A stretch of 24,326 nt of DNA. Origin: a virus. Lineage: Duplodnaviria; Caudoviricetes. The position numbers and the translations under genes were made by a program. The notes under the pieces were generated by a model that was given only the letters and a program-made list of their open reading frames with translations, was not told where the DNA came from and made no database searches. Below are positions 3,969 through 17,599 of this stretch, in pieces; positions within the stretch are counted from its first letter, which is position 1; every line of letters begins with the position of its first letter. The stretch lies in IMG/VR virus record IMGVR_UViG_3300033067_002141, positions 1-24,326 of that record, one strand, 5' to 3'.

Positions 3969-4228
3969 ACCTGTGGCCAGGACAAGTAGTCGATGTTGCA
4001 ATGCGTCATATTGAAAGCCCCTGGGTAACGCTCCAGCTCCGTGAACAGCCGCCTCTGTGCCTCCGGGTACAGGCGAAAGAGCGCAGCAGCCAGGAGCAGC
4101 GCGTGTCGGATCTCCTTATTGTCTACATGCATCACGCCGTCAGGCAATGTCTCTGCGTCCTCCATCGCCAGCGTGTAGACCTGCAGCGCCGCCACTGCGG
4201 CTTCTTCATACGCGAATAGCTGTCGCAC
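3965..4228 (-). CDS. hypothetical protein (87 aa, MRQLFAYEE...)
   Basis: GTG at 4228 with SD AGGAGG 6 nt upstream. Confidence 0.6.
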   Translation of the reverse strand: MRQLFAYEEAAVAALQVYTLAMEDAETLPDGVMHVDNKEIRHALLLAAALFRLYPEAQRRLFTELERYPGAFNMTHCNIDYLSWPQV

Positions 4229-4559
4229 GTTGTGCCTCCTTTCTCTCCGCTGCGTTCCGCACATGCACCCACTCGGCTTCACGCCCAGCCTCCTTGAGCA
4301 GCCACAGCGCCTTGAGCTTGGCTTCCGTCTCGGGCGCGTCTGCGAACATCTCGTACTCGCTGCGATTCCGGTGCGCCTCCGACGTGAAATCACTTGAGCT
4401 GACCAGCAGGTGCTCGCCATCAAAGACATAAATCATCCAGCCGTGATTCAGCCCCTCCAGCGTATCCTCTTCAGTGAGCACCAAAGGCCGTGTGCTGAGG
4501 TAATGGTACTCGACGTCCTGTCGCAGTGCCGGGTACTTTCGTACCGCTTCAAAGCTCAT
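4206..4559 (-). CDS. small protein, paralog family A (GW...EY..F...P....K.KALW)
   Basis: ATG at 4559 with SD GAGGAG; carries EYEMFADAPETEAKLKALWLL. Confidence 0.75.
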   Translation of the reverse strand: MSFEAVRKYPALRQDVEYHYLSTRPLVLTEEDTLEGLNHGWMIYVFDGEHLLVSSSDFTSEAHRNRSEYEMFADAPETEAKLKALWLLKEAGREAEWVHVRNAAERKEAQRATAIRV

Positions 4560-4740
4560 GGTCGCTCTCCTCAAAAAGTTCCGCCCCTCGCGGGGCGCCT
4601 GTCTTCAGCCGGTGCAGGTGCGCCTTCGCAAGCCTCACGCCAGCTTCCTGGGCCTGCACCCGAAGGCGCAGGGTGTGCAGCCGAGCCCGGGCCTGCTCAA
4701 GGTCCTGCTCGGCACGACGAAGCTTCTCAGCTTCAGTCAT
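4549..4740 (-). CDS. small coiled-coil protein (63 aa)
   Basis: ATG at 4740 with SD AAGGAG; heptad-like AEQDLEQARARLHTLRLRV. Confidence 0.6.
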   Translation of the reverse strand: MTEAEKLRRAEQDLEQARARLHTLRLRVQAQEAGVRLAKAHLHRLKTGAPRGAELFEESDHEL

Positions 4741-5134
4741 CGGGCTCTCCTTCATCAGCTTCTGGTACGACGTGTTTCAACGAAACCTCTACATCAACCT
4801 CTTCCCACAACTCGTATCCGCAGTCGCCGTCGGCACTCTCTTCGATGTCTGGGGTTTCCTCCCCAGCACGCACGAACCTCCACTCGGCACCAGAGGGGAA
4901 GCTCTCCACTGCCAGCCCCATGAGCGTGTGGTGTGCCTCTACGCTGGGGTCAGACGCATACCATTTGGTTCTGTCTGAAAACGTGATGCGGCTGTTCGGC
5001 TTCTTGTACTCGCACTCTTCAAGCGCGGCGACCTCGTGTTGATTACCTCGCGCCTGGATCAAAAGCACGAACTTGTCTCGCTGTGCGTTGTTGCGGAAGC
5101 GTATCGTGTACGCCACCGAGGAGTTGTAGCCCAT
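4733..5134 (-). CDS. hypothetical phage protein (133 aa)
   Basis: Follows the AAA stop with TAAGGAG immediately upstream; MGYNSSVA N-terminus and FVRAGEE..DIE motif. Confidence 0.75.
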   Translation of the reverse strand: MGYNSSVAYTIRFRNNAQRDKFVLLIQARGNQHEVAALEECEYKKPNSRITFSDRTKWYASDPSVEAHHTLMGLAVESFPSGAEWRFVRAGEETPDIEESADGDCGYELWEEVDVEVSLKHVVPEADEGEPDD

Positions 5135-5138
5135 CTCC

Positions 5139-6266
5139 TTACACCAGCGACAGGAACTGCTTGTTTTCCATCAGCAGCTTGCCGAAGGACTTGCTCGCTG
5201 CGAACTTGGCGAGGTTGGACTTCGCTGCATTCGTCACGAGCAGCATCTGGATCTCCTTCTGCATGCGGGGCACGTAGGTTGCAATGGCCTCGGCTTCCTT
5301 CGCATCGGCACACTGGGTCACGAACTGGAACGCCTGCACGGCCTGGGCGAGAGGCGAGTCAGGCACCTTGGCTTTCAGGGGGTCGGCGATCACGCTGGCG
5401 TACGGGGGCAGGTTGCGGCCGAAGCGGATGAATGCCCCCAAGTCCTTGGCGAACGCCACGCCCACCGTCCCCTCCAGCGCCACCTGCAGGGTGTGGTCAT
5501 CCATCAGGTGCTTGCGCTTGATCAGGTCGCTCGCTGCGTGCAGCGAGCGTGTGGTGACACAGGCCTTGCCCGTGTTGTTGCGGGGATCGTGGATGTAGTG
5601 GTTGTGCTTGGCCAGCGTCTCGCTGGAGTACTTGCCTCCTGGCATGTAATCGATGAAGCTGTCGAAGATCCGCGGGTACTCGAACGTGGCCGCGATCAGC
5701 TCGGGCGCGATGTTGTTGTGCAGCGCGAAGTTGTCAACCCACTCCTGCTGCGTCGGGGGCATGCACTTGACCATCGTCACCCGGTTGCGCAGGTGAGGCT
5801 GCAGGCTGTCGCCCAGACCCTCGTAGGCCATGTTGGTGGTGCCGAACACGATGCTGCCCTCGGGGAAGCGCAGGTTGCCGAGCCGACGCTCGTAGATGAG
5901 CGGGGCGCACATGTCCTTGACGAACTGCTTGGCCTTGCCGATCTCATCGAAGCACAGGACCACCGGCCGGGCGCCGGGTACGCCGGCATGGTTCTCCTCG
6001 TTGACGCCGAAGCGCTCGTTGGGCAGCTCGCGGCTGATACCACGTACGTTGTCCAGGCCCGGCATGGCCAGGCTGCCGTCACCCAGCTGGGTGCAGTCGA
6101 TGAGGCCAGGGAAGTGATGGTTGCTGAGAGCAGGTGTCTTGCGCAGAGCGTGGTACATCGCGGACTTGCCGATGCCCATGGGGCCCTCGACGAAGATCGT
6201 ACGCAGATCGCCAGCAGCGGCGATGAGGGAGACACACTGAGAAAGGGAAAGGAAATCGTGGCTCAT
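5139..6266 (-). CDS. MoxR-like AAA+ ATPase
   Basis: Walker A GPMGIGKS, Walker B VLCFDE, sensor-1 GTTN, Arg finger LRNR, TTRS sensor-2-like; SD GGAG. Confidence 0.9.
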   Translation of the reverse strand: MSHDFLSLSQCVSLIAAAGDLRTIFVEGPMGIGKSAMYHALRKTPALSNHHFPGLIDCTQLGDGSLAMPGLDNVRGISRELPNERFGVNEENHAGVPGARPVVLCFDEIGKAKQFVKDMCAPLIYERRLGNLRFPEGSIVFGTTNMAYEGLGDSLQPHLRNRVTMVKCMPPTQQEWVDNFALHNNIAPELIAATFEYPRIFDSFIDYMPGGKYSSETLAKHNHYIHDPRNNTGKACVTTRSLHAASDLIKRKHLMDDHTLQVALEGTVGVAFAKDLGAFIRFGRNLPPYASVIADPLKAKVPDSPLAQAVQAFQFVTQCADAKEAEAIATYVPRMQKEIQMLLVTNAAKSNLAKFAASKSFGKLLMENKQFLSLV

Positions 6267-6304
6267 GGTTTTCTCCAGTAGGAGTTAGGGGAAGTTTGTA
6301 AAGA

Positions 6305-6332
6305 ATTATACATGCTGACTTGTGAGAGTCAA
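6305..6332 (-). promoter_or_regulatory. sigma70-like promoter for the AAA/vWA operon
   Basis: Minus strand TTGACT (6332-6327), 16-bp spacer, TATAAT (6310-6305); -10 box about 40 nt upstream of the AAA start. Confidence 0.65.
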
Positions 6333-6342
6333 CCAGCCTGTA

Positions 6343-6364
6343 CTCAGGTGCGGATGCACCTGAG
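6343..6364. repeat. palindrome copy 1, CTCAGGTGC-GGAT-GCACCTGAG
   Basis: Exact 9-bp inverted arms; intergenic. Confidence 0.95.
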
Positions 6365-6416
6365 CTGCGTTGTGCTGCCGGTAGGCAGTAGAGGTTATGA
6401 GTGGTGAGAGAAGGGG

Positions 6417-6647
6417 TTAGAGGTCTGTGAGGTAGTGCCTGCGCAGGTCTCCAATTTGCACCAGGAAAGGTGTCTCTTCCGTGTATGCGACACGCCATCC
6501 AGCTGCAGCGAACGGAGACCATAAGCCCCGTGTCTCCTGGTTAAATTTGGACAGCTCGTACCAGACATCTAGCACACCCCGAGCCCACCACAGCAGGACC
6601 ATGGTCCTGGCTGCCTCCAAGGCTTCTTCGAGAGTTGGCTCGTTCAT
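6417..6647 (-). CDS. hypothetical protein (76 aa)
   Basis: ATGA coupling, SD GAGG; N-terminal LEEALEAARTMVLLWWAR resembles the next gene. Confidence 0.7.
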   Translation of the reverse strand: MNEPTLEEALEAARTMVLLWWARGVLDVWYELSKFNQETRGLWSPFAAAGWRVAYTEETPFLVQIGDLRRHYLTDL

Positions 6648-6874
6648 ATTTCAACCTCATATTGCTGGCTCTGGTATTTCACGCACGGTCGGTTCGTATG
6701 GAAAGTGAGGATGTAGCCTTTGTCCTGCAGTGGGTTACGTAGCGGGTTGATCGCTTCCAGGAAATCGCGTATCTCTACGTTCTGTACGTCCCTCACCCCA
6801 TCGGGGAAGCGAGCCCGAAACAGCAGGTGTATGGTTCGGCAGACGTCGATCGCCTCTTGTAGTTCTTCGGTCAC
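6644..6874 (-). CDS. hypothetical protein (76 aa, MTEELQEAIDVCRT...)
   Basis: GTG at 6874 with SD GAGGTG; preferred over the TTG at 6943. Confidence 0.65.
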   Translation of the reverse strand: MTEELQEAIDVCRTIHLLFRARFPDGVRDVQNVEIRDFLEAINPLRNPLQDKGYILTFHTNRPCVKYQSQQYEVEI

Positions 6875-6968
6875 ATTTTCACCTCGTACATCTGCTGGTT
6901 GTACCAAAACTTCGGCGGGTCGCTGACCCCTCGGCCTCTTCAATCTCCTGCGGTGTCAAATCATCCAT
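6871..6968 (-). pseudogene. possible internally deleted or frameshifted paralog of 6644..6874
   Basis: ATG at 6968 with SD GGGAGG gives MDDLTPQEIEEA. A different frame gives VSDPPKFWYNQQMYEVKM*, similar to PCVKYQSQQYEVEI* of the neighbour, and ends in a GTGA overlap. Confidence 0.35.
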
Positions 6969-7123
6969 ACCATGCCTCCCAGTATGAGGCAGAGAAGCGC
7001 GCCGAGGACGCAGCCCCAGGCACGTGGCTTGTCGTCCAGGGCTGTGGCGTAGTCTTCTGCCGCGAGTAGCAGAACACCTGCTGCGCAAGCGCAGGTTAGG
7101 GACATGAGAAAGGTGGTGATCAT
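6956..7123 (-). CDS. small two-TM membrane protein (55 aa; absent from the ORF track)
   Basis: ATGA coupling, SD GGAG; MITTFLMSLTCACAAGVLLLAAEDYATALDDKPRAWGCVLGALLCLILGGMVWMI has two hydrophobic segments. Confidence 0.65.
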   Translation of the reverse strand: MITTFLMSLTCACAAGVLLLAAEDYATALDDKPRAWGCVLGALLCLILGGMVWMI

Positions 7124-7428
7124 TTCAGTTGCTCCAGGTATGCCTCGATGATGCTGAGGCGGTCGTCGTATCTGATCTTCCTGTTGAGTCGCTCCTCATA
7201 GCCTGCGTCTTCGAGCTTGAAGTTGCCGCCCCACCACACGAAGCGTTGTTGTCTGCGAGCTCCAGCGTAGCTGCGGGTCTTCCTCCTGAACATCATCCGC
7301 AGCGTCTCGTCGATGAACTCGAACTGCACCAGGACTCTGGTGTGCTGCCACCTGGCCAGCACGAGTCCGGGAACACGCCGGGACCACTTCCCGTCATGAC
7401 TGACGAAGACCATGTCTCCGGGTTTCAT
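7120..7428 (-). CDS. hypothetical protein (102 aa), SH3/KOW-like N-terminus (MKPGDMVFV)
   Basis: ATGA coupling, SD GAGGAG. Confidence 0.7.
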   Translation of the reverse strand: MKPGDMVFVSHDGKWSRRVPGLVLARWQHTRVLVQFEFIDETLRMMFRRKTRSYAGARRQQRFVWWGGNFKLEDAGYEERLNRKIRYDDRLSIIEAYLEQLK

Positions 7429-7763
7429 ACTGCTCTCCTCTTCGCTCTCTCAAGCGCTTCGATCTCGTCGTCCCTGCCGAGGTTCTCCAGCATCCACAGC
7501 GCCTTCACCTTGAGCTCGGTCTCGGGGGCCTGGACGAACAGGTCGTACTCTCGCGCATTGGGGCCGTAGCCCGCTTGTCTGAAGTTGTTGATGTGCATCA
7601 GTAGAATCTCCCCTTCTTCAGTGACATCTCTGTAGATCACCCAGAAGTCATTGAGCGCCTCCCAGCATTCGTCGGGTGTCAACACGTGATTCTTTTCCTG
7701 CGGGAACCATACCGAGTCCGTCGCAATATTCGGGTGGTTTTTCAGGTCTTCATAGGTTCTCAT
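7425..7763 (-). CDS. small protein, paralog family A
   Basis: EYDLFVQAPETELKVKALWML; SD GAGG. Confidence 0.75.
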   Translation of the reverse strand: MRTYEDLKNHPNIATDSVWFPQEKNHVLTPDECWEALNDFWVIYRDVTEEGEILLMHINNFRQAGYGPNAREYDLFVQAPETELKVKALWMLENLGRDDEIEALERAKRRAV

Positions 7764-7927
7764 CTGCGCCTCGCCAGTTCACGCTCGATCCCCGTCATCA
7801 CAACGGCCGGGGGAAACTCTGTCACGCCATCGGCGCTCGGGACGTCCACCGCGTCCCGACCCTGTACCTTGGCTATGAGTGCTGCGACGTAGAGTCGCAC
7901 CCACGCTGGGAAATCTTCTGTATCCAT
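7760..7927 (-). CDS. hypothetical protein (55 aa, MDTEDFPAWVRLYVAALIAKV...; absent from the ORF track)
   Basis: Fills the gap and its stop overlaps the next ATG (ATGA), but it overlaps the upstream gene by 55 nt and has a weak SD. Confidence 0.45.
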   Translation of the reverse strand: MDTEDFPAWVRLYVAALIAKVQGRDAVDVPSADGVTEFPPAVVMTGIERELARRR

Positions 7928-8202
7928 AGTTCAACATCTTCTCTTTCGGTTTCGTTGAAGTGTTCCCACAACCACAATGCTTTCAACTTGCACATCACGT
8001 CATCGGGGGTGCAGACGAATGCCTCGTACGCGCTGTTACGCCTGTCCAAGCGTGTCTTGTTCAGGAACAATCCCCCGCTCCGCCCCTGGAATATGCGCCA
8101 CCCGTGGCTACACGCCTGCATGTGGTCCTCCATTGTCCAGCCGAAAGCCTTGAGCGCTTGCTCGTGTCTCTCGTAGTCGTAGGCGTCGTCGTCTTCGCTC
8201 AT
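7873..8202 (-). CDS. small protein, paralog family A
   Basis: ATG at 8202 with SD GGAG; FGWTMEDH...HGW...AYEAFVCTPDDVMCKLKALWL. Confidence 0.75.
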   Translation of the reverse strand: MSEDDDAYDYERHEQALKAFGWTMEDHMQACSHGWRIFQGRSGGLFLNKTRLDRRNSAYEAFVCTPDDVMCKLKALWLWEHFNETEREDVELWIQKISQRGCDSTSQHS

Positions 8203-8450
8203 GTGGGTCTCCACAACTCCAACTGTTCGCGCTCGTACGCATCAAACGCAGGCGAGTCCAGGACCCACAACACTTTCAACTTGCAAATCGCGTCGTCGGG
8301 CGTGTTCCAGAAGAGCACGTATTCTTCCTCGCGCGTCGTTCGTTTCTCTGAGTTCAATGCGAGGAGCGCCCCTGTCGGGTCGTCCACCAACACTACCTTC
8401 CAACCATAGTGCGCTGCCTCAGCAGCGTCAGCTTCGGTCCACCAGCTCAT
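8199..8450 (-). CDS. small protein, paralog family A
   Basis: ATGA coupling; WTEADAAEAAHYGW...EYVLFWNTPDDAICKLKVLWV. Confidence 0.7.
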   Translation of the reverse strand: MSWWTEADAAEAAHYGWKVVLVDDPTGALLALNSEKRTTREEEYVLFWNTPDDAICKLKVLWVLDSPAFDAYEREQLELWRPT

Positions 8451-8716
8451 TCCCAGAACCCCCGCTCTTCGAGCCTCCTCCGCAGCCCGTCGTTGATCAT
8501 TGCCCGTAACCACTGCAGCTTCACACGACACAAGGCGTATTCGGGGGTCTGTACTATACGGTTACACAAAATGGTGAAGTACTTCCCGTCCGCGGCGAAG
8601 TCTTCGCCAGGCCATGCGACAGCCAAGTTACCTGTGTCCGTGGTGATCTTCCAACCATACTTCGCAGCGTCTGCTGCGTCATCTTCGGTCCAGCCGAACT
8701 CTTCGAGTAAGCTCAT
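8447..8716 (-). CDS. small protein, paralog family A
   Basis: ATGA coupling, SD GGAG; FGWTEDDAADAAKYGW...QTPEYALCRVKLQWL. Confidence 0.7.
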   Translation of the reverse strand: MSLLEEFGWTEDDAADAAKYGWKITTDTGNLAVAWPGEDFAADGKYFTILCNRIVQTPEYALCRVKLQWLRAMINDGLRRRLEERGFWE

Positions 8717-9021
8717 CCTAGTTTCTCCATGGTTGCCTGCAGCTTCTCGATCTCCGTGCTGTGCCCGACTGCCTGCATCAGCCAGAGTGCTTTCACCTTC
8801 GCCGGGGTGTCGGGCGCTGTGAGGAATAGCTCGTATTCTGCGCCTGCTGCGGAACGGAGCACAAGGTGATTGCCTACGGGATACAGCGCCCAACCATCCG
8901 CTGCTGCTGCAACGATGTCCTCTTGTGTCCAACCGTACTGCAGCAGGTTTTTGCGTATTTCGTTGGGCCAGGTAAAACTCTGGAGTCGTTCTCTCTCCGT
9001 CTCTCTTTCTTCAGGGGTCAC
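8713..9021 (-). CDS. small protein, paralog family A
   Basis: GTGA coupling, SD GGAG; YGWTQEDIVAAAADGW...EYELFLTAPDTPAKVKALWLM. Confidence 0.75.
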   Translation of the reverse strand: MTPEERETERERLQSFTWPNEIRKNLLQYGWTQEDIVAAAADGWALYPVGNHLVLRSAAGAEYELFLTAPDTPAKVKALWLMQAVGHSTEIEKLQATMEKLG

Positions 9022-9662
9022 AAATGTCTCTCCCCGATCTCCTGGTAGAGAGCGCTCAGATGCTTGGCTACCTTCTTCGCCCGACGCAGCAGGTCGGGGT
9101 CCGAGGTCACGTAGGGGTGGTCGAGGATGTAATCCCCGAAGGTGCCGCACAGCATGTACGTCCGATCGAGCGCCTCGTGAGCGTGGTATTCGTCGAGTGC
9201 CGGCGGCGTGGGGTCGATGGACTTCGCTCCGAACCTGTCGAGGATCTTCTGCGCCGCGGCGGCTTTGCCGGTGCCGTTCGCGGGTTCGTTGATGATGCTC
9301 GCGCACATGTCCTTCACCTTCTGGTCAACCTTCGGTTTGATCTCATCCGCCAGGACTTGCAGCGCAGCGTCGTGCTTCCTTCCCCCATCAGTGGGGTCCA
9401 CCTGCTCCGCAGGCTCCAGCTTCTCCCCCGTGGACCTGCTGTACCCGGGGCGGGGCCAGTAGTCGGTCCACTCGATTTCGTAGGTTGAGTCTGTTGGGGT
9501 AGCCGCAAGCTGTGCTGCAGTATCTGCGTCTAGAAAGTCCCCAACGCCTATGCTCCACGTCTTCCCATCCCACCAACGCCAGTAACTCTCCGTGCGGTTC
9601 GGGCTCGCATTCCACCAGCCCACCTCGGGAGGGGGTCCTTTGTGCCAGGTACGGTTGTTCAT
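9018..9662 (-). CDS. hypothetical protein with Trp-rich N-terminal domain (214 aa)
   Basis: ATG at 9662 with SD AGGAG; WHKGPPPEVGWW...YWRWWDGKTWS...IEWTDYWP. Confidence 0.75.
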   Translation of the reverse strand: MNNRTWHKGPPPEVGWWNASPNRTESYWRWWDGKTWSIGVGDFLDADTAAQLAATPTDSTYEIEWTDYWPRPGYSRSTGEKLEPAEQVDPTDGGRKHDAALQVLADEIKPKVDQKVKDMCASIINEPANGTGKAAAAQKILDRFGAKSIDPTPPALDEYHAHEALDRTYMLCGTFGDYILDHPYVTSDPDLLRRAKKVAKHLSALYQEIGERHL

Positions 9663-9826
9663 GTCAGCTCCTTCTTTTCCTTCTCGCGCAGGCGATCTTC
9701 TGCCTGCTTCAGCATGCGACACAGGGTGTCGTTGCGTGCGCGCAGCAGCACGTTCTCTTTCCACAAGGCTTCACGGTCCAGCTTCGACAGGTCCACCTTC
9801 GGAAGCTCTACGATCTCATCTTTCAT
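9659..9826 (-). CDS. small coiled-coil protein (55 aa; absent from the ORF track)
   Basis: SD AGGAG; MKDEIVELPKVDLSKLDREALWKENVLLRARNDTLCRMLKQAEDRLREKEKKELT; ATGA overlap with the next gene. Confidence 0.7.
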   Translation of the reverse strand: MKDEIVELPKVDLSKLDREALWKENVLLRARNDTLCRMLKQAEDRLREKEKKELT

Positions 9827-10220
9827 CTTCTCTCTCCTTGTTGACCGCCATGGCCGCCGGGTTGAAGTTCATCACGCAGCTCGGGTAATAGTCCCCGGTG
9901 TTGCGCGTACCGACTTCGATCACCACCTCATGTGTGCCCACACAACGGATCTCCAGCGTCTCATGTGAATCCCCGTTGGAGTCGAACGTCGGGCCGGGCA
10001 CGGCGTACACGGGGATACCCTCAAACGTATTCACCATCGGGCTGGCGCCGGGGTCTTCGATCCTGATATCACGCAGGTGACTGCGGTACCCGTCGTCGGG
10101 ATCTTCCACCGCCACGTAGATCACGCCGTTGAGGCGGAAGCGCATGATGTTGCGCTCTCCTTCCCATTCGTAGTCCACACCGTCCAGGACATGGAATCCT
10201 TCGAGATCCTTGAGCTCCAT
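9816..10220 (-). CDS. conserved-type hypothetical phage protein (134 aa)
   Basis: TGATG coupling, SD AAGGAG; EDPDDGYRS and GT.NTGDYYP motifs. Confidence 0.75.
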   Translation of the reverse strand: MELKDLEGFHVLDGVDYEWEGERNIMRFRLNGVIYVAVEDPDDGYRSHLRDIRIEDPGASPMVNTFEGIPVYAVPGPTFDSNGDSHETLEIRCVGTHEVVIEVGTRNTGDYYPSCVMNFNPAAMAVNKEREDER

Positions 10221-10531
10221 CACTCCTTCCCCCCTTCGACCTTCGGCGCCGGCTCGACGCGCCACACGCGGCAGAACGTCTTGCCGTGCTCCTCCACCTT
10301 GCGCATCACGTACGTGTTGCCCGTGGCCTTTCGTGCGGTGGCAGCCGCGACGCTGACGCCGGTGGTCGTGTATCCCAGGGCTTTGACACACTCGCCAATC
10401 TTGAGCGCCTTGATGTGCTCCAGCAGGCTGATGCGCTTGGGTTTCTTCGCCTTGGCCGGCTTGTGAATGGGCGCCGGGATGGGGATGTTCCGCTCGACGA
10501 TGATGCGGTAGTTGGTTGCGTCTTTCTTCAT
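10220..10531 (-). CDS. small basic protein, possibly DNA-binding (103 aa)
   Basis: ATG at 10531 with SD GGAG; ERNIPIP...LKIGE...RVWRV pattern seen in small basic phage proteins; Lys/Arg-rich. Confidence 0.7.
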   Translation of the reverse strand: MKKDATNYRIIVERNIPIPAPIHKPAKAKKPKRISLLEHIKALKIGECVKALGYTTTGVSVAAATARKATGNTYVMRKVEEHGKTFCRVWRVEPAPKVEGGKE

Positions 10532-10589
10532 TTCTCTCTCCAGTTGTGCGGTGTTACCCGCGGGTTGAGGGGACAGCCCCCTCGTGAAA

Positions 10590-10611
10590 CTCAGGTGCAG
10601 ATGCACCTGAG
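10590..10611. repeat. palindrome copy 2, CTCAGGTGC-AGAT-GCACCTGAG (extends to AACTC...GAGTT, 10588-10613)
   Basis: Exact inverted arms; intergenic. Confidence 0.95.
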
Positions 10612-10654
10612 TTGTTCTGTGCTGCCGTGAGGCAGGGGTATGAGTGGTGCGAGG

Positions 10655-11464
10655 TCACAAGTCCCGAGTCCAATCCACACCCTGCTCCTCCACGCTCAGG
10701 CGTGGCTCGGGCGTCTTGCGCACGTGGTCGGGGTTCATCTCATACTTGCGCTCGCGGCCGTTGTCCATGATCTCCCGCTCCGCACTTGACATCAGGGGGT
10801 AGTACGTCGGCGGGATGGGCTTCTCCAGGGCGTCGAGGCGCTGCAGCAGGCGCTGCATGACTTCCTCCTGCTTGCGATACTTCTCCCGATCGTGCAAGTT
10901 CTCCGTGGTAGCCAGCAGCTGCGACTGCTCAATGGCCTTCACGATCTGATACCGCACCTTGAAGCGGCGATCGTCTTCCTCACGCATGGACTTCTGGTCG
11001 ATCGTGAAGGGTTCCTTGCGGCGCACACCTGGGCGCAGCGGGATCTTGGCGAACTCCGCGCGCACCGCGTCGCTCACGGCTTTGGGCACGTACGCAAACC
11101 AGAACACGCCGCCACTGGGGATCTGGTACCGTTTCACGTAATCCTGGCGCGTGACACTCTGATTGATCGCCTGGTGGATGCGAGCGCGCAGCTTCAGCAG
11201 CACCTCCAGGTAGGCTTCGTGTGCGTTCCGCTCGGGCGTGCCCGGCATCTTCGAGCGCAGGTTGGCGCGGATAGTCTGGGTTTCGCGACGCAGCGCGGAC
11301 AAGATTGACTTCCAAGAGCGCGACACATGCGTGTCGACAAGCTCCGTTTCGCGTTCAGTCACTTTGAAATTGAACTGTTTGAGTACCTTGTCGGTGGTCT
11401 GCGCGTCGAGTCCAGCCTTGAACAGCATGTCTTTGAACACTTCGGCGGTGAGTTTGAGTTCCAT
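10655..11464 (-). CDS. hypothetical helical protein (269 aa, MELKLTAEV...)
   Basis: ATG at 11464 with SD GGAGG; the upstream extension in the track is low-complexity. Confidence 0.75.
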   Translation of the reverse strand: MELKLTAEVFKDMLFKAGLDAQTTDKVLKQFNFKVTERETELVDTHVSRSWKSILSALRRETQTIRANLRSKMPGTPERNAHEAYLEVLLKLRARIHQAINQSVTRQDYVKRYQIPSGGVFWFAYVPKAVSDAVRAEFAKIPLRPGVRRKEPFTIDQKSMREEDDRRFKVRYQIVKAIEQSQLLATTENLHDREKYRKQEEVMQRLLQRLDALEKPIPPTYYPLMSSAEREIMDNGRERKYEMNPDHVRKTPEPRLSVEEQGVDWTRDL

Positions 11465-12120
11465 TTGGGCCTCCAAAAAGCGCAGTGTAACTTTTCCAGG
11501 AGGAAAGTCAACGAGAACATGAAGGCAAGAGGCCGAGAATCCGTTCGGGCACAAATTGGGGTGTGGAGTAAAGCTGGACATGTGTAGGCAAGCAGTGGAG
11601 AACACGCAGGCAATACGCGGAGAACATGAGACAGAAAAAAGGAGACAACTTTGGCGCAACTGTGAGGCACGCAAAAAGATGAACAAAAGGAGGAAAGAAG
11701 ACGGGAACACAAAAAGGGGGCAAGGCAACAAGACGAGAACATAAAGGAAAGAACGTGGCATTACATGTTGGCTAACCAGATTGGTTATGCTCTTGCCCAA
11801 TTAGCCAGGGCAAGATCCCGGGCAAGCCTGTTGATTTGTATAGGGCTGCCCCTCTGGGCGTGGGAGATTTACTACATCTCCATATCGTAGAGTGCGTCTA
11901 GACTTGTGGATGTGCGGGCGTCCAAGTTCTGAACTATGGACTCACTGGAATACATTTACTTATCTATATACTATATAAAGATATATATTAAATAGACTTC
12001 TACTGGGCGCCCAATCAAGCGCTACAACACACTTACTGAGGTTTATGCCGTGGATAAAATGGCATAAACCTATCCCGACCAAAAAGTGTTGCTTTTTAGC
12101 TACACCTGTCATGTTGGAGA
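11465..12120. other. long non-coding region with purine skew and an AT-rich tract (candidate origin/control region)
   Basis: A/G-rich + strand at about 11500-11760; several GGGCAA/TTGCCC motifs at about 11718-11826; (TA)n-rich tract at about 11950-11995. Confidence 0.4.
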
Positions 12121-12142
12121 CTCAGGTGCACGTGCACCTGAG
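12121..12142. repeat. palindrome copy 3, CTCAGGTGC-ACGT-GCACCTGAG (perfect 26-bp palindrome at 12119-12144)
   Basis: GACTCAGGTGCACGTGCACCTGAGTC. Confidence 0.95.
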
Positions 12143-12160
12143 TCCCGTCGCCCCGCCCGC

Positions 12161-12457
12161 CTATGAGTGCTGCACCCGCGCAGCTTCCCGCCTCTCGCGG
12201 GCGATCGTGTGCCAGCCGATGAAGTCGGCGTTGGCCCTGCGCCTGGCCAGGTCCAGCTCGGGTGTCCAGGGGTGCAGCACCCCCTCGGTGATGAGGCGGA
12301 TGCGCGTGGCGCTCACGCGGGGCTTGTCCAGGGCCTTGATGAAGTGCCGGCCGCCAGGCAGGGCGCCCACGTAGTGGGTCTTGCTCCAGAAAAGGCCGAT
12401 GGTGGTCTCAGCGTGTTGCACCGCGGCAGCGTGGGTGGGGAAGGAAGTAGAAGACAT
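12161..12457 (-). CDS. hypothetical protein (98 aa)
   Basis: SD GGAG; lies between palindrome copies 3 and 4. Confidence 0.65.
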   Translation of the reverse strand: MSSTSFPTHAAAVQHAETTIGLFWSKTHYVGALPGGRHFIKALDKPRVSATRIRLITEGVLHPWTPELDLARRRANADFIGWHTIARERREAARVQHS

Positions 12458-12496
12458 GAAGTTCTCCAGAAGAAAGGGTTGAGAGAGGGGAGGGAT

Positions 12497-12518
12497 CTCA
12501 GGTGCAGCTGCACCTGAG
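12497..12518. repeat. palindrome copy 4, CTCAGGTGC-AGCT-GCACCTGAG
   Basis: Perfect 22-bp palindrome. Confidence 0.95.
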
Positions 12519-12523
12519 TTGGG

Positions 12524-12697
12524 TCAGAACATGGACTTGCAGATGGCGATACCCTGGGCGATGTACGCCTCAGACATGGCGTCGAGGGAGGGCCCATACG
12601 CACGCTTGAAAAGCTCCGCGCTCTTCTGCTCGGGGGTCCAGTCGGGGTGCTCGCGATCGACATCGTCGGCGAGCTTGCGTAGATCAAACAAACGCAT
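12524..12697 (-). CDS. hypothetical protein (57 aa, MRLFDLRKLADD...)
   Basis: SD AGGAGG; TGATG coupling. Confidence 0.65.
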   Translation of the reverse strand: MRLFDLRKLADDVDREHPDWTPEQKSAELFKRAYGPSLDAMSEAYIAQGIAICKSMF

Positions 12698-12882
12698 CAC
12701 AGCCTCCTGGGCAGGGTGAAGGAGTGCACCACCCCGCGCTTGAATTGCACGGTCGTGGTCCCCAGGGGGAAGCAGGTCTGGCGCTCGTTGCGCGGGCCCG
12801 CCACGCTCGCGATGGCGCCGGCGTAGGGGTTGAGTAGGGTAGGCATCCGAAAGGCGCGTTGGCCGTTGGTCTTGAGTTGCAT
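12697..12882 (-). CDS. hypothetical protein (61 aa, MQLKTNGQ...)
   Basis: SD GGAG 6 nt upstream of the ATG at 12882. Confidence 0.6.
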   Translation of the reverse strand: MQLKTNGQRAFRMPTLLNPYAGAIASVAGPRNERQTCFPLGTTTVQFKRGVVHSFTLPRRL

Positions 12883-12905
12883 AAGGTTCTCCAATGAGAG
12901 AGGAA

Positions 12906-12927
12906 CTCAGGTGCATCTGCACCTGAG
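12906..12927. repeat. palindrome copy 5, CTCAGGTGC-ATCT-GCACCTGAG
   Basis: Exact arms; the core is the reverse complement of the core in copies 2 and 7. Confidence 0.95.
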
Positions 12928-12975
12928 AGTAGCGACGCTACTCCATACCCCTGCGCGCAGGGGTACAGGCTAGGG

Positions 12976-13206
12976 TCAGAGCATCTCGTAATACGTCTCA
13001 CGCAGCATGAGCATGAGCCAGACTGTGCGGTCGCGGCGCATCGTGTGCCGTCCAGCTACGCTGAACTCGTGGTCGCGCAAGATCAAAGCCATTTCGTACT
13101 CTGCTCGCGTCATTTGCAGCCACGTGTCGTTGTGGTAGTCGTTGAATGCGTTGATCGCACGTTTGAGCGCGGCGCGGCGATAAGCTGCATGGCGGGATAT
13201 AGCCAT
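12976..13206 (-). CDS. hypothetical protein (76 aa, MAISRHAAY...)
   Basis: SD GGAG upstream of the ATG at 13206. Confidence 0.65.
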   Translation of the reverse strand: MAISRHAAYRRAALKRAINAFNDYHNDTWLQMTRAEYEMALILRDHEFSVAGRHTMRRDRTVWLMLMLRETYYEML

Positions 13207-13453
13207 AAAAGACTCCAAAAGAAGTACGGGACAGTCAAGCTGTCCCAAGGGGTGGGAAACGACGTCTATATAACCAGAAGTAGGATGCCCGGCTTATGAC
13301 ATCCCGATCTGTTGGGGCCGCGTGATATGCGTGTTTGTGTCGCAAGATGCAGAACCCCCGCAGGTGATGGGAGAAACAGGCGTAACCCATCCTTGAATGC
13401 ACGGCAATCCAGGGAAATCTGCAAATTGCGACAAACCTGACCGATCGGTCAGA

Positions 13454-13475
13454 CTCAGGTGCACGTGCACCTGAG
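13454..13475. repeat. palindrome copy 6, CTCAGGTGC-ACGT-GCACCTGAG
   Basis: Perfect palindrome, 1 bp away from a second 16-bp palindrome CTGACCGATCGGTCAG (13437-13452). Confidence 0.95.
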
Positions 13476-13485
13476 TTACCTGGGC

Positions 13486-13914
13486 TCACTCTGCCATTTC
13501 AGACAGGGCAATGGCGAACAGCTTCTTCGCGTCGCTCTTGCTCAGACCGGCGATGGCCTTGCCGATCTTGGCAACGTATTGCCGACGGGTCTCAGTCATG
13601 CGGAAGGCTTTGGTCTCCTTCACGCTGATGCTGTGCCCGAACACAGCGCGCACCAACCTAAGATGCCTGCTCTTGGCCGTGTTGTACTTGGTCTCATCCT
13701 CCTTTGCGAAGCCCATGCCGCGTTGGCCCTCGACCAGACCGATCTTGTAGTGCGCCGCTACCAGCGGCATGAGTAGGGACGCTACGGACTCGCGTCCACC
13801 CTTGATGGCCTTGGCCATCTGCGGGTGCGCTTGCAACGTCACGATGTCATTGAGGAACTTGTCTCCGGTGGTGAGAGCGGAGGAAACAAGAGATTGAAGG
13901 GTAATGGTAGCCAT
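13486..13914 (-). CDS. hypothetical basic helical protein (142 aa, MATITLQS...)
   Basis: SD GAAAGGA upstream of the ATG at 13914. Confidence 0.75.
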   Translation of the reverse strand: MATITLQSLVSSALTTGDKFLNDIVTLQAHPQMAKAIKGGRESVASLLMPLVAAHYKIGLVEGQRGMGFAKEDETKYNTAKSRHLRLVRAVFGHSISVKETKAFRMTETRRQYVAKIGKAIAGLSKSDAKKLFAIALSEMAE

Positions 13915-13942
13915 GATGTGTCCTTTCGAGACATGAGAAAAA

Positions 13943-13964
13943 CTCAGGTGCAGATGCACCTGAG
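13943..13964. repeat. palindrome copy 7, CTCAGGTGC-AGAT-GCACCTGAG
   Basis: Exact arms; followed on the minus strand by TTTTT. Confidence 0.95.
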
Positions 13965-14016
13965 AGCAGCGAGTAACGCCACTCCATTGCACAGCACGCT
14001 GTGCAACAGGGTGAGG

Positions 14017-14199
14017 TCAGATGTAGAAGTACATCGTCTCCGTCTCGTACCCACGGACAATGCGCCGCTCGACGATGCGCTTACCCGCAGCACGCAGTTC
14101 CACCATGTGAGCACGCAAGTCAGCACTGACAACCTCATCGTCTTCGCTGTACTCACTACCAATGTACACAGCGTTCTTTGGGATAGGGGGAAGGGACAT
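14017..14199 (-). CDS. hypothetical protein (60 aa, MSLPPIPKNAV...), first gene of the left arm
   Basis: SD GGAG upstream of the ATG at 14199. Confidence 0.65.
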   Translation of the reverse strand: MSLPPIPKNAVYIGSEYSEDDEVVSADLRAHMVELRAAGKRIVERRIVRGYETETMYFYI

Positions 14200-14215
14200 T
14201 TGGATTCTCCAGAAC

Positions 14216-14236
14216 AAAAGCCCGCAACGTGCGGGC
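14216..14236 (-). terminator. terminator-like hairpin in the leader of the left arm
   Basis: Minus strand GCCCGCA-CGT-TGCGGGC followed by TTTTGTT. Confidence 0.45.
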
Positions 14237-14529
14237 CAACCGATCAACTGGGCCAACCCCAATCGATGCCTCTATTATACCGCAACGTGTTCTGGAGAGA
14301 GGGAGAGTAGGTACTTACAGCCAGGGCGAGACCCACCGGGGGCGGGGGAACCCAATGGAGGGCGAGGTGGGCGATGGGACTTGAACACTGTTCCACACCC
14401 GCGATCGGCATTTTTTAAATTTTTTGAAAACAAAAGGCCACTTCTCAAGCAGAAACACACAAGAAAAAGCCCCGCCGGACACGAATCGAGCGGGGCTAAC
14501 TCGGACATGCCGAGAGGGAGGAGAACGTC

Positions 14530-15177
14530 GTGACTTCCCCAAGCCACGCTCCCAGTGTACACTGCCAAAACATGTTTGACCACCTGCTGAACATCGACTC
14601 CCCAACGCTCGACTTCCCGGCCGAGGGCTTCACCGCTGTCGCGGATGCACAGCCTCACGAGGTCATCACTGCCCAGGTCGGCACCATGGACTGGCTCGAA
14701 GAGATCGGGGCCCCCATCACCAGCCCGATGGACAATTTGCAGAAGGAAGCGGCCCGCTCCGCGTTCCTGGCCGTAACCACAGGCGCTCCACTACCCGACG
14801 CTCAGAAACAAGCGCTCCTGAAGATCAAGGGGCCGGCAGCCGTGCAGCAGCTGACCTCCATGCTGGACGCATATGACTGGGAGTTCGTGGAGCAGGCCAA
14901 GGAACTGCGCGGGTACATCACCGCCAAGATCCTCGAGGAAACCAAACACCCCGACCCACGGATCCGGCTCAAGGCGCTCCAGATGCTCGGCAACATCGCC
15001 GAGGTCGGGCTGTTCGAGGAGCGCGTGAAGATCACCAAGGTGGACGCCACCGCAGAGGAATTGGAGAAACGTATTCGGGAGAGGCTGGCCAATTGGGTGC
15101 CGGCCGCCGCGCAGAACCAGACGGTCACTGACGTCGAGCTGAAGGAAGCCACCGGTGAGCGCCCGACAACCCCTTGA
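14530..15177 (+). CDS. putative terminase small subunit
   Basis: SD GGGAGGAG before the GTG; directly upstream of and overlapping TerL; helical, with an RLKALQMLG..VGLF motif. The call is mainly positional. Confidence 0.6.
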   Translation: MTSPSHAPSVHCQNMFDHLLNIDSPTLDFPAEGFTAVADAQPHEVITAQVGTMDWLEEIGAPITSPMDNLQKEAARSAFLAVTTGAPLPDAQKQALLKIKGPAAVQQLTSMLDAYDWEFVEQAKELRGYITAKILEETKHPDPRIRLKALQMLGNIAEVGLFEERVKITKVDATAEELEKRIRERLANWVPAAAQNQTVTDVELKEATGERPTTP

Positions 15178-17599
15178 CCTGACCCCCAGCGCGATCGCAG
15201 CGCTGCTGCAGGCGCTCCCCACCATGCCCGTGGCGGAGAAGGCCGAGCTGCTGGCCGACCTGGAGTTGCTCGAGCAAAAGACAAAATACCAGCGCGCACG
15301 TGACAGCTTCCCGGATTTCTGCCGGGCCGTGTACCCGGACTGGAAGGAAGGCCCCCACCACCGCCACCTGGCGCCCAAGCTGCACGACGTGGCGCTCGGA
15401 ACGAAGACCCGGATGTCCGTCAGCATGCCCCCGCGGTTCGGAAAGAGCGAGTCGATCGCGTTCTTGTTCGTCGCCTGGTACCTTGGACATCACCCCGGGC
15501 ACCACATCATGATGGTGACGCATACCGCCTCGCTGTCCGCGGACTTCGGGCGAAAGGTGCGCAACCTCATCGACGCGCCCACATACCAGGCGATCTTCCC
15601 AGACACCAAGGTGTCTCGCGACAAGACGGCCAGTGACAACTGGACCACGACGCTCGGGGGCAAGTACCTGGCGATCGGTATCGGCGCCAACGTGGCCGGC
15701 CACGGCGCCCACCTCCTGATCTGCGATGACCTGGTGTCCGAGCAGGTGATGCTGACCTCCAGCCCCGACGCGGCGTTCGCCACGGCCTGGGAGTACGTGC
15801 AGGTGGGCCCGCTGCAGCGCCTGATGCCCAACGGGCGCATCGTGATGATCGCCTGCATGACAGCCGAGACCCGCGTGTTGATGGCGGACGGGACTGAGAA
15901 AGAAATGCAGCACATCAAGGTAGGCGACAGCATCGCTACTTATGACGCTGGGAAGATCTCCACCTCTCGTGTGACAAACTGGATCAAGCATCCTCATGAT
16001 TTTATTTACAAAATAAGAACAACTTCGGGTAGAATTGTCCGGGCAAACAAGAGACACCCTTTTCTTGTGGATCGCAACGGAGTCAGGACATGGGTACGAG
16101 TGCAGGACTTGAAGGTGGGGGACTGCTTGGTGGAGGCTGTTCAACCGCAGGCTGCGGGCGGCCACACAAAGCCAGGGGACTGTGCAGCGCCTGCTACAAA
16201 CGAAAGCTCAGTGCCGAAGGAAGAGTCGGAACTCAACGCCACACCGGGCACTGGGGGAAGTGGAAAGGGGCTGTATGCGCTGTTGATGGGTGCGGCAGTC
16301 CAGTCTCCGCCAAAGGACTTTGTCACAGCTGCTACGGCAAGAAGTACTGGGCGGAAGGAAAACGGCGTCCAACGACTTCTCAGAAACGCGAGAGCCATCT
16401 CAAGCATCGGTACGGCATTTCTGTGCAAATTTACGACGACATGCTGGCGGCGCAAGGAGGCTGCTGTGCCGTATGCAAGCAGCCTCCCAACAACACAAAC
16501 TCACGGGCTGGGCAGGAGCCAAAGCTGTATGTCGACCACTGCCATGACACCGGTAGGGTCCGAGGATTGCTCTGCAACCACTGCAACTTGGCCATCGGAT
16601 ACGCGCACACAGAAGCAGGACTGTTGGCCGCGGCCGAGTACGTACGCTACCACAGCGTCAGCGATTGCTGAGATCGCCGAAGACGGGTTTGAGCCCGTCT
16701 TCGATATGGAAGTAGCGCGTACCGAGAACTTCATCGCTAACGGCGTGGTGAGTCATAACACGCGCTGGGGAAAGAAAGACCCGATCGGCCGCGCGCTGGC
16801 CTGGGCGCAGAACAACCCCGACAGTCCGCAGTGGGACGAGGTGAGATTCCCGGCGATCCTGCCGAGCGGCAAGAGTCTGTGGCCCGAGCAGTGGCCGATC
16901 GAGCAGCTGCTGGCAAAGAAGGCCAGCATGTTCCCCCAGTTCTGGGCCGCCCAGTACATGCAGGAGCCCACCTCGGAGGAGGGGGCGGTGATCAAGCGCG
17001 ACTGGTGGAAGATCTGGGAGTCGGACGACCCACCCAAGTGCGAGTACATCATGATGTCGGTGGACACGGCGCACGACACGAAGAGCTCCTCTGACTACAC
17101 CGCAATAACCACGTGGGGAGTATGGTCAGACGAGCGCCGGGACTACAAGCCACAGTTGATACTTTTGGATGCGTTCAAGGACCGGATGGAGTTCCCGGAG
17201 CTCAAGAAGATAATGCTGAAGCATTACAAGAACTGGGAACCGGACGCGGTGATCATCGAGAAGAAGGCCGCCGGGGCGCCGCTGATCCAGGAGCTGCGGG
17301 CAGTTGGAGTACCGGTGCAGGAGTTCAGCCCGAGCCGGGGAAATGACAAGCGCGTGCGCTTGAATGCTATCGCAGACCTGTTTTCTTCTGGTATCGTATG
17401 GGTCCCCGACACACGATGGGCCCGTGAAGTGATGGACGAAGTGGCTGAATTCCCGAACGGCGAGCACGATGACTATGTGGACACAACTTCACAAGCCCTG
17501 TTGCGTTTCCGCCAGGGCGGGTTCGTGACGCTCGACACCGACGACACAGACGATGACCGGCTGCGCACACCGCAGAGCCGGGCGTACTACAGGATCTGA
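15155..17599 (+). CDS. terL: terminase large subunit with intein (814 aa precursor; 512 aa after splicing)
   Basis: Walker A MPPRFGKS, Walker B LICDDL, motif C IA|TRW split by the intein, RNase H-like nuclease motifs SVDTA..SDYTA, EKKAAG and HDDYVDT. Confidence 0.95.
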   Translation: MSARQPLDLTPSAIAALLQALPTMPVAEKAELLADLELLEQKTKYQRARDSFPDFCRAVYPDWKEGPHHRHLAPKLHDVALGTKTRMSVSMPPRFGKSESIAFLFVAWYLGHHPGHHIMMVTHTASLSADFGRKVRNLIDAPTYQAIFPDTKVSRDKTASDNWTTTLGGKYLAIGIGANVAGHGAHLLICDDLVSEQVMLTSSPDAAFATAWEYVQVGPLQRLMPNGRIVMIACMTAETRVLMADGTEKEMQHIKVGDSIATYDAGKISTSRVTNWIKHPHDFIYKIRTTSGRIVRANKRHPFLVDRNGVRTWVRVQDLKVGDCLVEAVQPQAAGGHTKPGDCAAPATNESSVPKEESELNATPGTGGSGKGLYALLMGAAVQSPPKDFVTAATARSTGRKENGVQRLLRNARAISSIGTAFLCKFTTTCWRRKEAAVPYASSLPTTQTHGLGRSQSCMSTTAMTPVGSEDCSATTATWPSDTRTQKQDCWPRPSTYATTASAIAEIAEDGFEPVFDMEVARTENFIANGVVSHNTRWGKKDPIGRALAWAQNNPDSPQWDEVRFPAILPSGKSLWPEQWPIEQLLAKKASMFPQFWAAQYMQEPTSEEGAVIKRDWWKIWESDDPPKCEYIMMSVDTAHDTKSSSDYTAITTWGVWSDERRDYKPQLILLDAFKDRMEFPELKKIMLKHYKNWEPDAVIIEKKAAGAPLIQELRAVGVPVQEFSPSRGNDKRVRLNAIADLFSSGIVWVPDTRWAREVMDEVAEFPNGEHDDYVDTTSQALLRFRQGGFVTLDTDDTDDDRLRTPQSRAYYRI
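15854..16759 (+). mobile_element. intein (302 aa) in the TerL ATPase domain
   Basis: Block A CMTAETRVLMADG, block B IVRANKRHPFLV, WVRVQDLKVGD, block F VFDMEV..TENFIANG, block G VSHN followed by Thr+1. Removal restores IVMIATRWG. Confidence 0.95.
16090..16671 (+). CDS. zinc-finger / Endonuclease VII-type (His-Me) putative homing endonuclease in an alternative frame inside the intein
   Basis: SD GGAG 7 nt before the ATG at 16090; two Cx4C...GLCxxCY repeats; YGIS...MLAAQGGCCAVC...LYVDHCHDTGRVRGLLCNHCNLAIG, the recombination endonuclease VII signature. Confidence 0.88.
   Translation: MGTSAGLEGGGLLGGGCSTAGCGRPHKARGLCSACYKRKLSAEGRVGTQRHTGHWGKWKGAVCAVDGCGSPVSAKGLCHSCYGKKYWAEGKRRPTTSQKRESHLKHRYGISVQIYDDMLAAQGGCCAVCKQPPNNTNSRAGQEPKLYVDHCHDTGRVRGLLCNHCNLAIGYAHTEAGLLAAAEYVRYHSVSDC

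Follow-up and report, generated by a model that had tools for sequence, protein, structure and literature searches.

Predicted stacked stem-loops behind two stop codons and a repeated palindrome in the early region of a Caudoviricetes phage

The window (the whole stretch of DNA that was analyzed, 24,326 nucleotides, positions 1 to 24,326 of IMG/VR virus record IMGVR_UViG_3300033067_002141) carries the terminase, portal, and major capsid genes of a Caudoviricetes phage on the plus strand from position 14572, and, to the left of these, small unassigned minus-strand genes. By capsid protein, the nearest annotated phages are Pag-Yong1/MinM2 (70%), DSL-LC04 (61%), and HTVC023P/027P (59%), and capsid and portal together place the phage near the HTVC023P-type and Pag-Yong1 phages, an abundant, mostly uncultured group. 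Because a −10 box and a 5′ hairpin head the minus-strand genes and 40 viral loci match this leader pattern (a −10 box, then a 5′ hairpin), we take the minus strand to be the early transcript. The features of this early region are as follows.

14243..14279, minus strand: predicted main early promoter and 5′-end hairpin with two G-U pairs; −10 box TATAAT at 14279-14274
14017..14199, minus strand: 60-aa ORF upstream of module 7
13943..13964, no strand: palindrome copy 7, with a terminator-like call and, on the minus strand, a T-run behind it
13486..13914, minus strand: 142-aa gene, candidate palindrome reader; in relatives, the first early gene is of this family
13454..13475, no strand: palindrome copy 6, behind the 142-aa gene
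12976..13206, minus strand: 76-aa ORF upstream of module 5
12906..12927, no strand: palindrome copy 5 (likely a DNA dyad site)
12497..12518, no strand: palindrome copy 4, a minimal junction of stop codon, 4 nt, and palindrome, without stems A and B
12121..12142, no strand: palindrome copy 3
10590..10611, no strand: palindrome copy 2
6343..6364, no strand: palindrome copy 1, with a sigma-70-like −35 box (6332) 11 nt downstream

In the window (14274-14300) and the 40 loci, the early promoter has a conserved −10 box, no canonical −35 box, and usually a C-run about 10 nt upstream of the −10 box. The leader also holds a palindrome (14219-14237) whose sequence is unlike that of the seven-copy palindrome; a T-run follows it, right before the first ribosome-binding site. 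An odd leader hairpin is found in relatives L143, L144, and L161 as well, together with a palindrome copy within gene 1.

The 142-aa protein falls within the family of first early genes of the relatives (gene 1) at up to 28% identity. The gene-1 set comprised 66 distinct proteins in the tree and 56 in the alignment, with the ORF of L056 left out as a wrong call. No Pfam or PHROG family matched the 142-aa protein. Its structure model is confident (pLDDT 84.8), and a fold search with that model returned no reliable match and no DNA-binding fold, the best hit being KH-like at a Z score of 5.3, below the bar.

Copies 5 and 7 of the palindrome are part of longer junctions. Read along the minus strand, each of them has a TGA stop codon, a 7-nt spacer, stems A and B, and then the 22-bp palindrome. 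Measured from the stop codon, the shared junction spans 73 nt in copy 5 (12978-12906) and 77 nt in copy 7 (14019-13943), and its sequences lie where the original prediction had placed a shared module of about 75 nt reaching the upstream stop codon. The stems are located as follows.

12943..12968, minus strand: stem A of copy 5, 11 bp, CGCG tetraloop, starting 7 nt past the stop codon
12927..12943, minus strand: stem B of copy 5, stacked directly on stem A
13984..14009, minus strand: stem A of copy 7, CGUG tetraloop, four compensated pairs relative to copy 5
13964..13984, minus strand: stem B of copy 7, containing minus-strand U-G and G-U pairs

Alignment of the two copies reveals that, of the 11 pairs of stem A, four have changed on both sides and none is broken, which agrees with the earlier claim that the four differing pairs are all compensated. 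In copy 5, stem A consists of eight Watson-Crick pairs followed by basal G-U, U-G, and C-G pairs, and this three-pair extension, absent from the original prediction, exists on the minus strand only. Two of the six pairs of stem B have changed on one side, giving U-G and G-U; the pair count thus bears out the claim that mismatches on the plus strand become wobble pairs on the minus strand. On the transcribed strand, each of the four wobble positions in the two stems is a G-U pair. None of the nine pairs of the palindrome hairpin varies. With two rows, the shuffle control of this alignment has a floor of 31/500; in simulated trials, eight random substitutions over the eight inner pairs kept all pairs about twice in 10,000. 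These features (sequences, compensation, minus-strand G-U pairs, and the position 7 nt past the stop codon) are read directly from the two copies. One Logan contig, probably from the source sample, covers both copies without a differing letter, and the contigs examined showed neither a variant nor a joint between copies of the palindrome.

The two junctions fold on the minus strand with z-scores of −4.2 and −3.8, and none of 200 shuffles is as stable. Folding energies of the minus and plus strands are close (−45.5 versus −43.0 and −43.1 versus −42.7 kcal/mol), and folded as DNA the two strands are equal in stability. In addition to stems A and B, we found a competing fold that the original prediction had not described.

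12933..12978, minus strand: predicted long stem of copy 5, from stop codon to stem-B loop, 18 of 21 rungs paired
13974..14019, minus strand: predicted long stem of copy 7, 19 of 21 rungs paired

In this long stem, the stop-codon segment pairs with the 5′ arm of stem B, so that the long stem and stem B are mutually exclusive. The long stem is favored over A and B by 1.5 kcal/mol in copy 5 (pair probability of about 0.9), whereas A and B are favored by 1.0 kcal/mol in copy 7 (long-stem pair probability of about 0.2). When the first 9 nt are blocked, both copies adopt the A and B fold. All six substitutions in the outer arm preserve or create pairs, and this pairing is weakly significant (random 10-mers match in 4.9% and 1.2% of cases; substitution P = 0.05 and 0.31).

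The comparison with Rfam that the original prediction had called for gave no matching family (Rfam 15 covariance models at the gathering threshold, window positions 5000-15000, best E = 0.85); the same scan of 16 related loci yielded a tRNA only. Searches of viral contigs, GTDB genomes, and related loci recovered no sequence homolog of A and B. Patterns of the module gave five matches, none with pairing, and no match in GTDB genomes; a stem-B pattern gave 33 matches, in which the upstream stem A was missing and similarity to the window was absent. A covariance model built from the two copies, as the original prediction had proposed for a search of phages, found no homolog (no match under E = 3 in 97 related loci). 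Protein-led locus searches using the 142-aa and 76-aa genes recovered nothing. Because the homolog search was empty, the covariation of the exact A and B module rests on two copies. In the open-access literature, to which our search was confined (subscription papers were outside its scope), we found no description of the junction elements. The stem-B palindrome of copy 5 also occurs in unrelated contigs (L190:2003-2131, L182, L193, and L184); in L190, a 164-kb contig, it stands five times in tandem between two genes.

The relatives carry a two-hairpin motif of their own, covarying and rich in G-U pairs (alignment A2, model R1), mostly between gene 2 and gene 3. R1 matches 25 of 97 loci at E < 1e−11 (L008:6756-6820 and 24 others), including the 14 loci used for training the model; the related loci represent few lineages and are not independent. 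Within the alignment of 14 sequences, both sides have changed in 6 of 15 pairs and 97% of cells are paired. There are 30 G-U/U-G cells and no A-C cell, and the six unpaired cells are all C-U. None of 500 shuffles reached the covariation score. Rfam did not match R1 in the six loci scanned. On the basis of this alignment, R1 itself is a candidate for a new structured RNA.

R1 resembles A and B in its layout: a stop codon, about 10 nt, a long stem (at least 11 bp) containing G-U pairs, a stacked second hairpin, and an alternative long fold. In L020 and L032, the stem has 11 bp and a CGUG loop; the lineage palindrome is sometimes present, and the motif lies after gene 2, just as copy 5 lies behind the second early gene. 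The stem base is 8 to 16 nt from the first base of the upstream stop codon in 15 of 17 distinct R1 instances and 10 nt from it in both window copies, versus 7.5% of random positions, although intergenic elements in compact genomes are expected near stops. The long form is the lowest-energy fold in 8 of the 17 instances, and all 17 give an A-and-B-type fold after blocking. In contrast, the second hairpin differs and sequence homology is undetectable; the R1 model did not match either window copy with filters off and E up to 10. Because no sequence homolog was found and R1 misses the window, the link between them is one of layout and position only, and we treat A and B and R1 as analogues by layout rather than as demonstrated homologs.

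Hairpins near the relatives' palindromes are also biased by strand. Counted over 182 distinct hairpins that lie no farther than 70 nt from a palindrome, G-U exceeds A-C (43 versus 24, P = 0.027, for hairpins that are not independent), whereas a shuffled control gave 279 versus 291. Loop types differ between the transcribed and the opposite strand as well (CGGNY, 18 versus 1; UUCG, 5 versus 0; GNRA, 28 versus 12). The compensation, the G-U pairs on the transcribed strand only, and, in the relatives, the covarying motif of the same layout and the strand-specific hairpins suggest that stems A and B likely fold as RNA, shortly after the stop codon of the upstream gene in the early polycistronic mRNA. 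The earlier claim of a folded RNA structure is supported for these two stems but not for the third hairpin of the proposed module, the palindrome. Five further copies of the palindrome stand without the stems, and its equivalents in relatives are unbiased by transcript strand and switch with the first early gene.

Two kinds of accessory hairpin in the relatives deserve mention. A hairpin with a CGGNY pentaloop is conserved, with 7 to 8 bp of varying stem sequence, mostly 8 to 20 nt before a ribosome-binding site (L007, L008, L010, L035, L045, L046, L054, L142, L156, and others). Nested hairpin units with UUCG and GTC loops lie downstream of the palindrome and are gained or lost between close relatives (junctions of L035, L036, L039, L041, L049, L055, L007, and L017).

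The palindrome itself likely is an element separate from A and B, a DNA dyad site rather than an RNA. Seven copies are present versus none in 100 shuffles, five of them without stems A and B, and only one of the seven receives a terminator-like call. Copies 1 and 2 carry an accessory hairpin different from A and B: 10 nt upstream of them on the minus strand (6375-6400 and 10622-10645) lies CACTCATA, then a 5-bp hairpin, CTGCC-N4-GGCAG, a unit which we take to be loosely like lambda boxA/boxB. The exact palindrome has no match in viral contigs and is found in four metagenome contigs, one copy each, within unrelated coding DNA; a shorter core has 52 single-copy matches and no repeated one.

Early regions of the relatives carry repeated palindromes of their own. 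In 90 early regions, including that of the window (cut from 80 TerS-linked and 40 leader-linked loci, near-identical genomes included), at least three copies of one palindrome are present in 77, and in 49 of the 52 that are at least 4 kb long, versus a repeated palindrome in none of 55 late regions. Its sequence differs from lineage to lineage, and some relatives have copies inside gene 1. On the transcript, arm mismatches are G-T in 19 and A-C in 13 cases (291 distinct sites), spacer-edge mismatches are A-C in 19 and G-T in 11, and 60 of 179 asymmetric centers are found reversed as well. The mean T-run after the palindrome equals the mean A-run before it (2.57 versus 2.60), while runs of at least 5 are somewhat T-favored (37 T-runs after versus 21 mirror A-runs before, of 290 in relatives).

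The palindrome also changes together with gene 1. Loci L029 and L018 are 82 to 97% identical outside the gene-1 block, but their palindromes differ at two aligned junctions, and at a third the palindrome is lost in L018 relative to L029. In pairs with TerS at least 85% but gene 1 less than 40% identical, the palindrome differs in 30 of 33 (the pairs are not independent); the other three share the palindrome despite 22 to 24% gene-1 identity. In the nine reverse pairs, the palindrome is shared in five and similar in four. When all pairs are considered, the similarity of palindromes tracks gene 1 and TerS to about the same extent (Spearman 0.33 and 0.30), which does not discriminate between them. 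Because the palindrome cosegregates with gene 1, we infer that it likely is a DNA site to which the 142-aa first early protein would bind. The dyad site thus follows a phage protein, as in a repressor-operator array, in the discordant pairs, although the global correlation does not discriminate. An integron attC site forms a long, imperfect hairpin, flanked by RYYYAAC and GTTRRRY, in which some bases are extrahelical; the perfect palindrome of 22 to 26 bp, with AAC/GTT edges at some copies only, rules this identity out, and a CRP-like reading was also ruled out on sequence. Mycobacteriophage stoperators, the sites of a repressor (PMC9283540), similarly occur in many copies through a transcribed region, some within genes, and change in sequence with a phage protein. 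Unlike them, the window's palindrome is a symmetric dyad, its candidate reader has no reliable fold match, and there is no sign of a temperate lifestyle.

How two junctions came to carry the same module can be read from the relatives. In one of them, protein P0002 (called from an upstream start) begins with 17 residues that are the translation of the window's leader and runs from these straight into the homolog of the 142-aa protein (a protein-level observation). Neither the 60-aa gene nor module 7 thus stands behind the same leader in this relative; in other relatives, gene 1 follows the leader. These observations suggest that module 7 probably is a duplicate of module 5 brought by an inserted gene, in which case the junction (stop codon, hairpins, palindrome, and ribosome-binding site) would be duplicated upon insertion of a gene cassette, as for PeSL-type linkers. 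The PeSL cassettes of the T4-type phages RB49 and phi1, in the passages of PMC2839356 that describe them, likewise combine repeated stop-to-ribosome-binding-site junctions, stem-loops, and small early ORFans, with genes gained or lost at the junction (in our case, the one P0002 relative at the protein level). The window differs in having no sigma-70 promoter in junctions 5 or 7 (there is one beside copy 1), a perfect lineage-specific palindrome that tracks the first early gene, and accessory RNA hairpins that vary by junction.

What would stems A and B do in the early mRNA? The reading that we prefer, and to which we give somewhat less than even weight, is by analogy: the stems would be a decay signal between cistrons, similar to REP and puf elements. 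REP elements are defined by a consensus with a 5′ GTAG tag and by many copies per genome; A and B do not have this consensus, and in the two modules GTAG occurs only inside the stem-B arm of copy 5. REP/BIME elements and the Rhodobacter puf stem-loops are, as here, adjacent stem-loops just behind a stop codon within a polycistronic mRNA. In the puf operon, stem-loops block 3′ exonucleases and endonucleolytic steps (passages of PMC7509114), and a REP at most 15 nt away from a stop codon stalls ribosomes, which leads to cleavage (passages of PMC12306157); A and B lie within that distance in both copies, 7 nt from the stop. The stacked stems would block 3′-to-5′ exonucleases and, being no more than 15 nt from the stop codon as in translation-active REP hairpins, would meet the terminating ribosome. 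In this way they could set the duration and efficiency of expression of the short upstream cistron relative to the next one. Unlike REP and puf elements, A and B are phage-borne, present in two copies, free in stem sequence, and accompanied by a separate palindrome and a predicted alternative fold.

That alternative fold raises the possibility, which we consider unlikely, that the long stem is a host RNase III site at which the early transcript is cut between cistrons, as in phage T7. The T7 early mRNA has five RNase III signals (section of PMC3867540), and R1.1-type signals are interrupted hairpins of about 21 bp between early cistrons (parts of PMC1540722, PMC6212723, and PMC3867540); RNase III takes about 22 bp and requires an 11-bp helix (parts of PMC6212723 and PMC1540722). 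The long stem, with 18 to 19 of its 21 rungs paired, symmetric internal loops, and an 11-bp helix with a tetraloop, fits this description and sits between the stop codon and the following ribosome-binding site. Scored by the base-pair counts of Altuvia 2018 (PMC6212723, Table S4), which derive from E. coli and may not hold for the host, the best sites (−27.1 and −25.2) pass the lax threshold of that study, but equally good scores are reached by 46% and 40% of the random sequences that were threaded on these stems. The pair pattern is thus no better than in threaded controls, and the tandem G-U pairs near the center fall where E. coli targets in that table almost never carry any. The stem further differs from a T7 signal in competing with stem B, and the relatives' R1 instances score −26 to −37 (nine scored).

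A wider scheme, in which this phage group would assemble its early gene junctions from a kit of two layers, seems to us rather improbable: the DNA palindrome would be read by a swappable first early protein, and undescribed RNA modules would be added at the junctions, with A and B forming a two-state switch flipped by the ribosome that terminates on the upstream stop codon. If this were true, the terminating ribosome would couple the translation of one cassette to the processing or expression of the next.

We find it quite improbable that A and B act at the DNA level or are neutral, either as perfect palindromes that template switching makes and repairs where hairpins abound and recombination occurs, or as hairpins in single-stranded DNA. 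Template switching can repair perfect palindromes without selection, and gCNNGc and GXC loops are stable in DNA. The inner stems are indeed perfect, with centers of 1 to 2 nt, the two strands fold equally well as DNA, and the tandem array in L190 is of the stem-B palindrome. Yet the four wobbles all are G-U on the transcribed strand, the basal two of stem A are present in both copies, where repair would erase them, and the accessory hairpins are strand-biased across the clade.

Doubtful to a high degree is a two-state RNA switch, in which a ribosome on the stop codon would give A and B and its absence the long stem, altering downstream expression or cleavage. The two folds are within 1.5 and 1.0 kcal/mol of each other, blocking of the first 9 nt leads to A and B in both copies and in all 17 of the relatives' instances, eight of which favor the long form, and all outer-arm substitutions keep or create pairs. 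The significance of the outer-arm pairing is weak, however, nine of the relatives' instances do not favor the long form, and no output is visible: neither state masks the ribosome-binding site or precludes the palindrome hairpin.

Least probable is an effect on transcription. The HK022 put antiterminator works through the put sequence and modification of the polymerase, and A and B, as two adjacent stems resembling put, might modify the polymerase similarly, or the palindrome hairpin might terminate transcription, given that copy 7 is terminator-like with a T-run after it; but this call applies to one copy in seven, the relatives' T-runs and A-runs are equal on average, the palindrome hairpin is compatible with stem B and hence offers no mutual exclusion, and R1 often has no palindrome behind it. 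PeSL stem-loops do act as terminators (passages of PMC2839356).

Intercistronic stem-loops, cassette linkers, and operator arrays are known as general kinds, while these instances are not in Rfam. If our reading of a decay signal at A and B and of a DNA site in the palindrome is right, the early genes would be tuned by at least three RNA motifs missing from Rfam and also by a protein-palindrome pair exchanged between strains, of which L029 and L018 would represent a natural specificity swap.

Several minor observations concern other parts of the window. An AT-rich tract lies beside a long imperfect palindrome (11950-12000 and 12040-12070), together a possible origin; TATA tracts are found in relatives at the matching position. 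Short paralogous ORFs (4206-4574, 7425-7763, 7873-8214, 8199-8531, and 8713-9306) end in a similar KLKALWL-type motif, and this family comes with repeated DNA (families D2, D5, and D17). On the plus strand, the terminase gene (15155-17599) has an insertion that we take to be intein-like; nested in it, on the same strand but in a different frame, is a 193-aa ORF (16090-16671) with a motif that is presumably endonuclease-VII-like.
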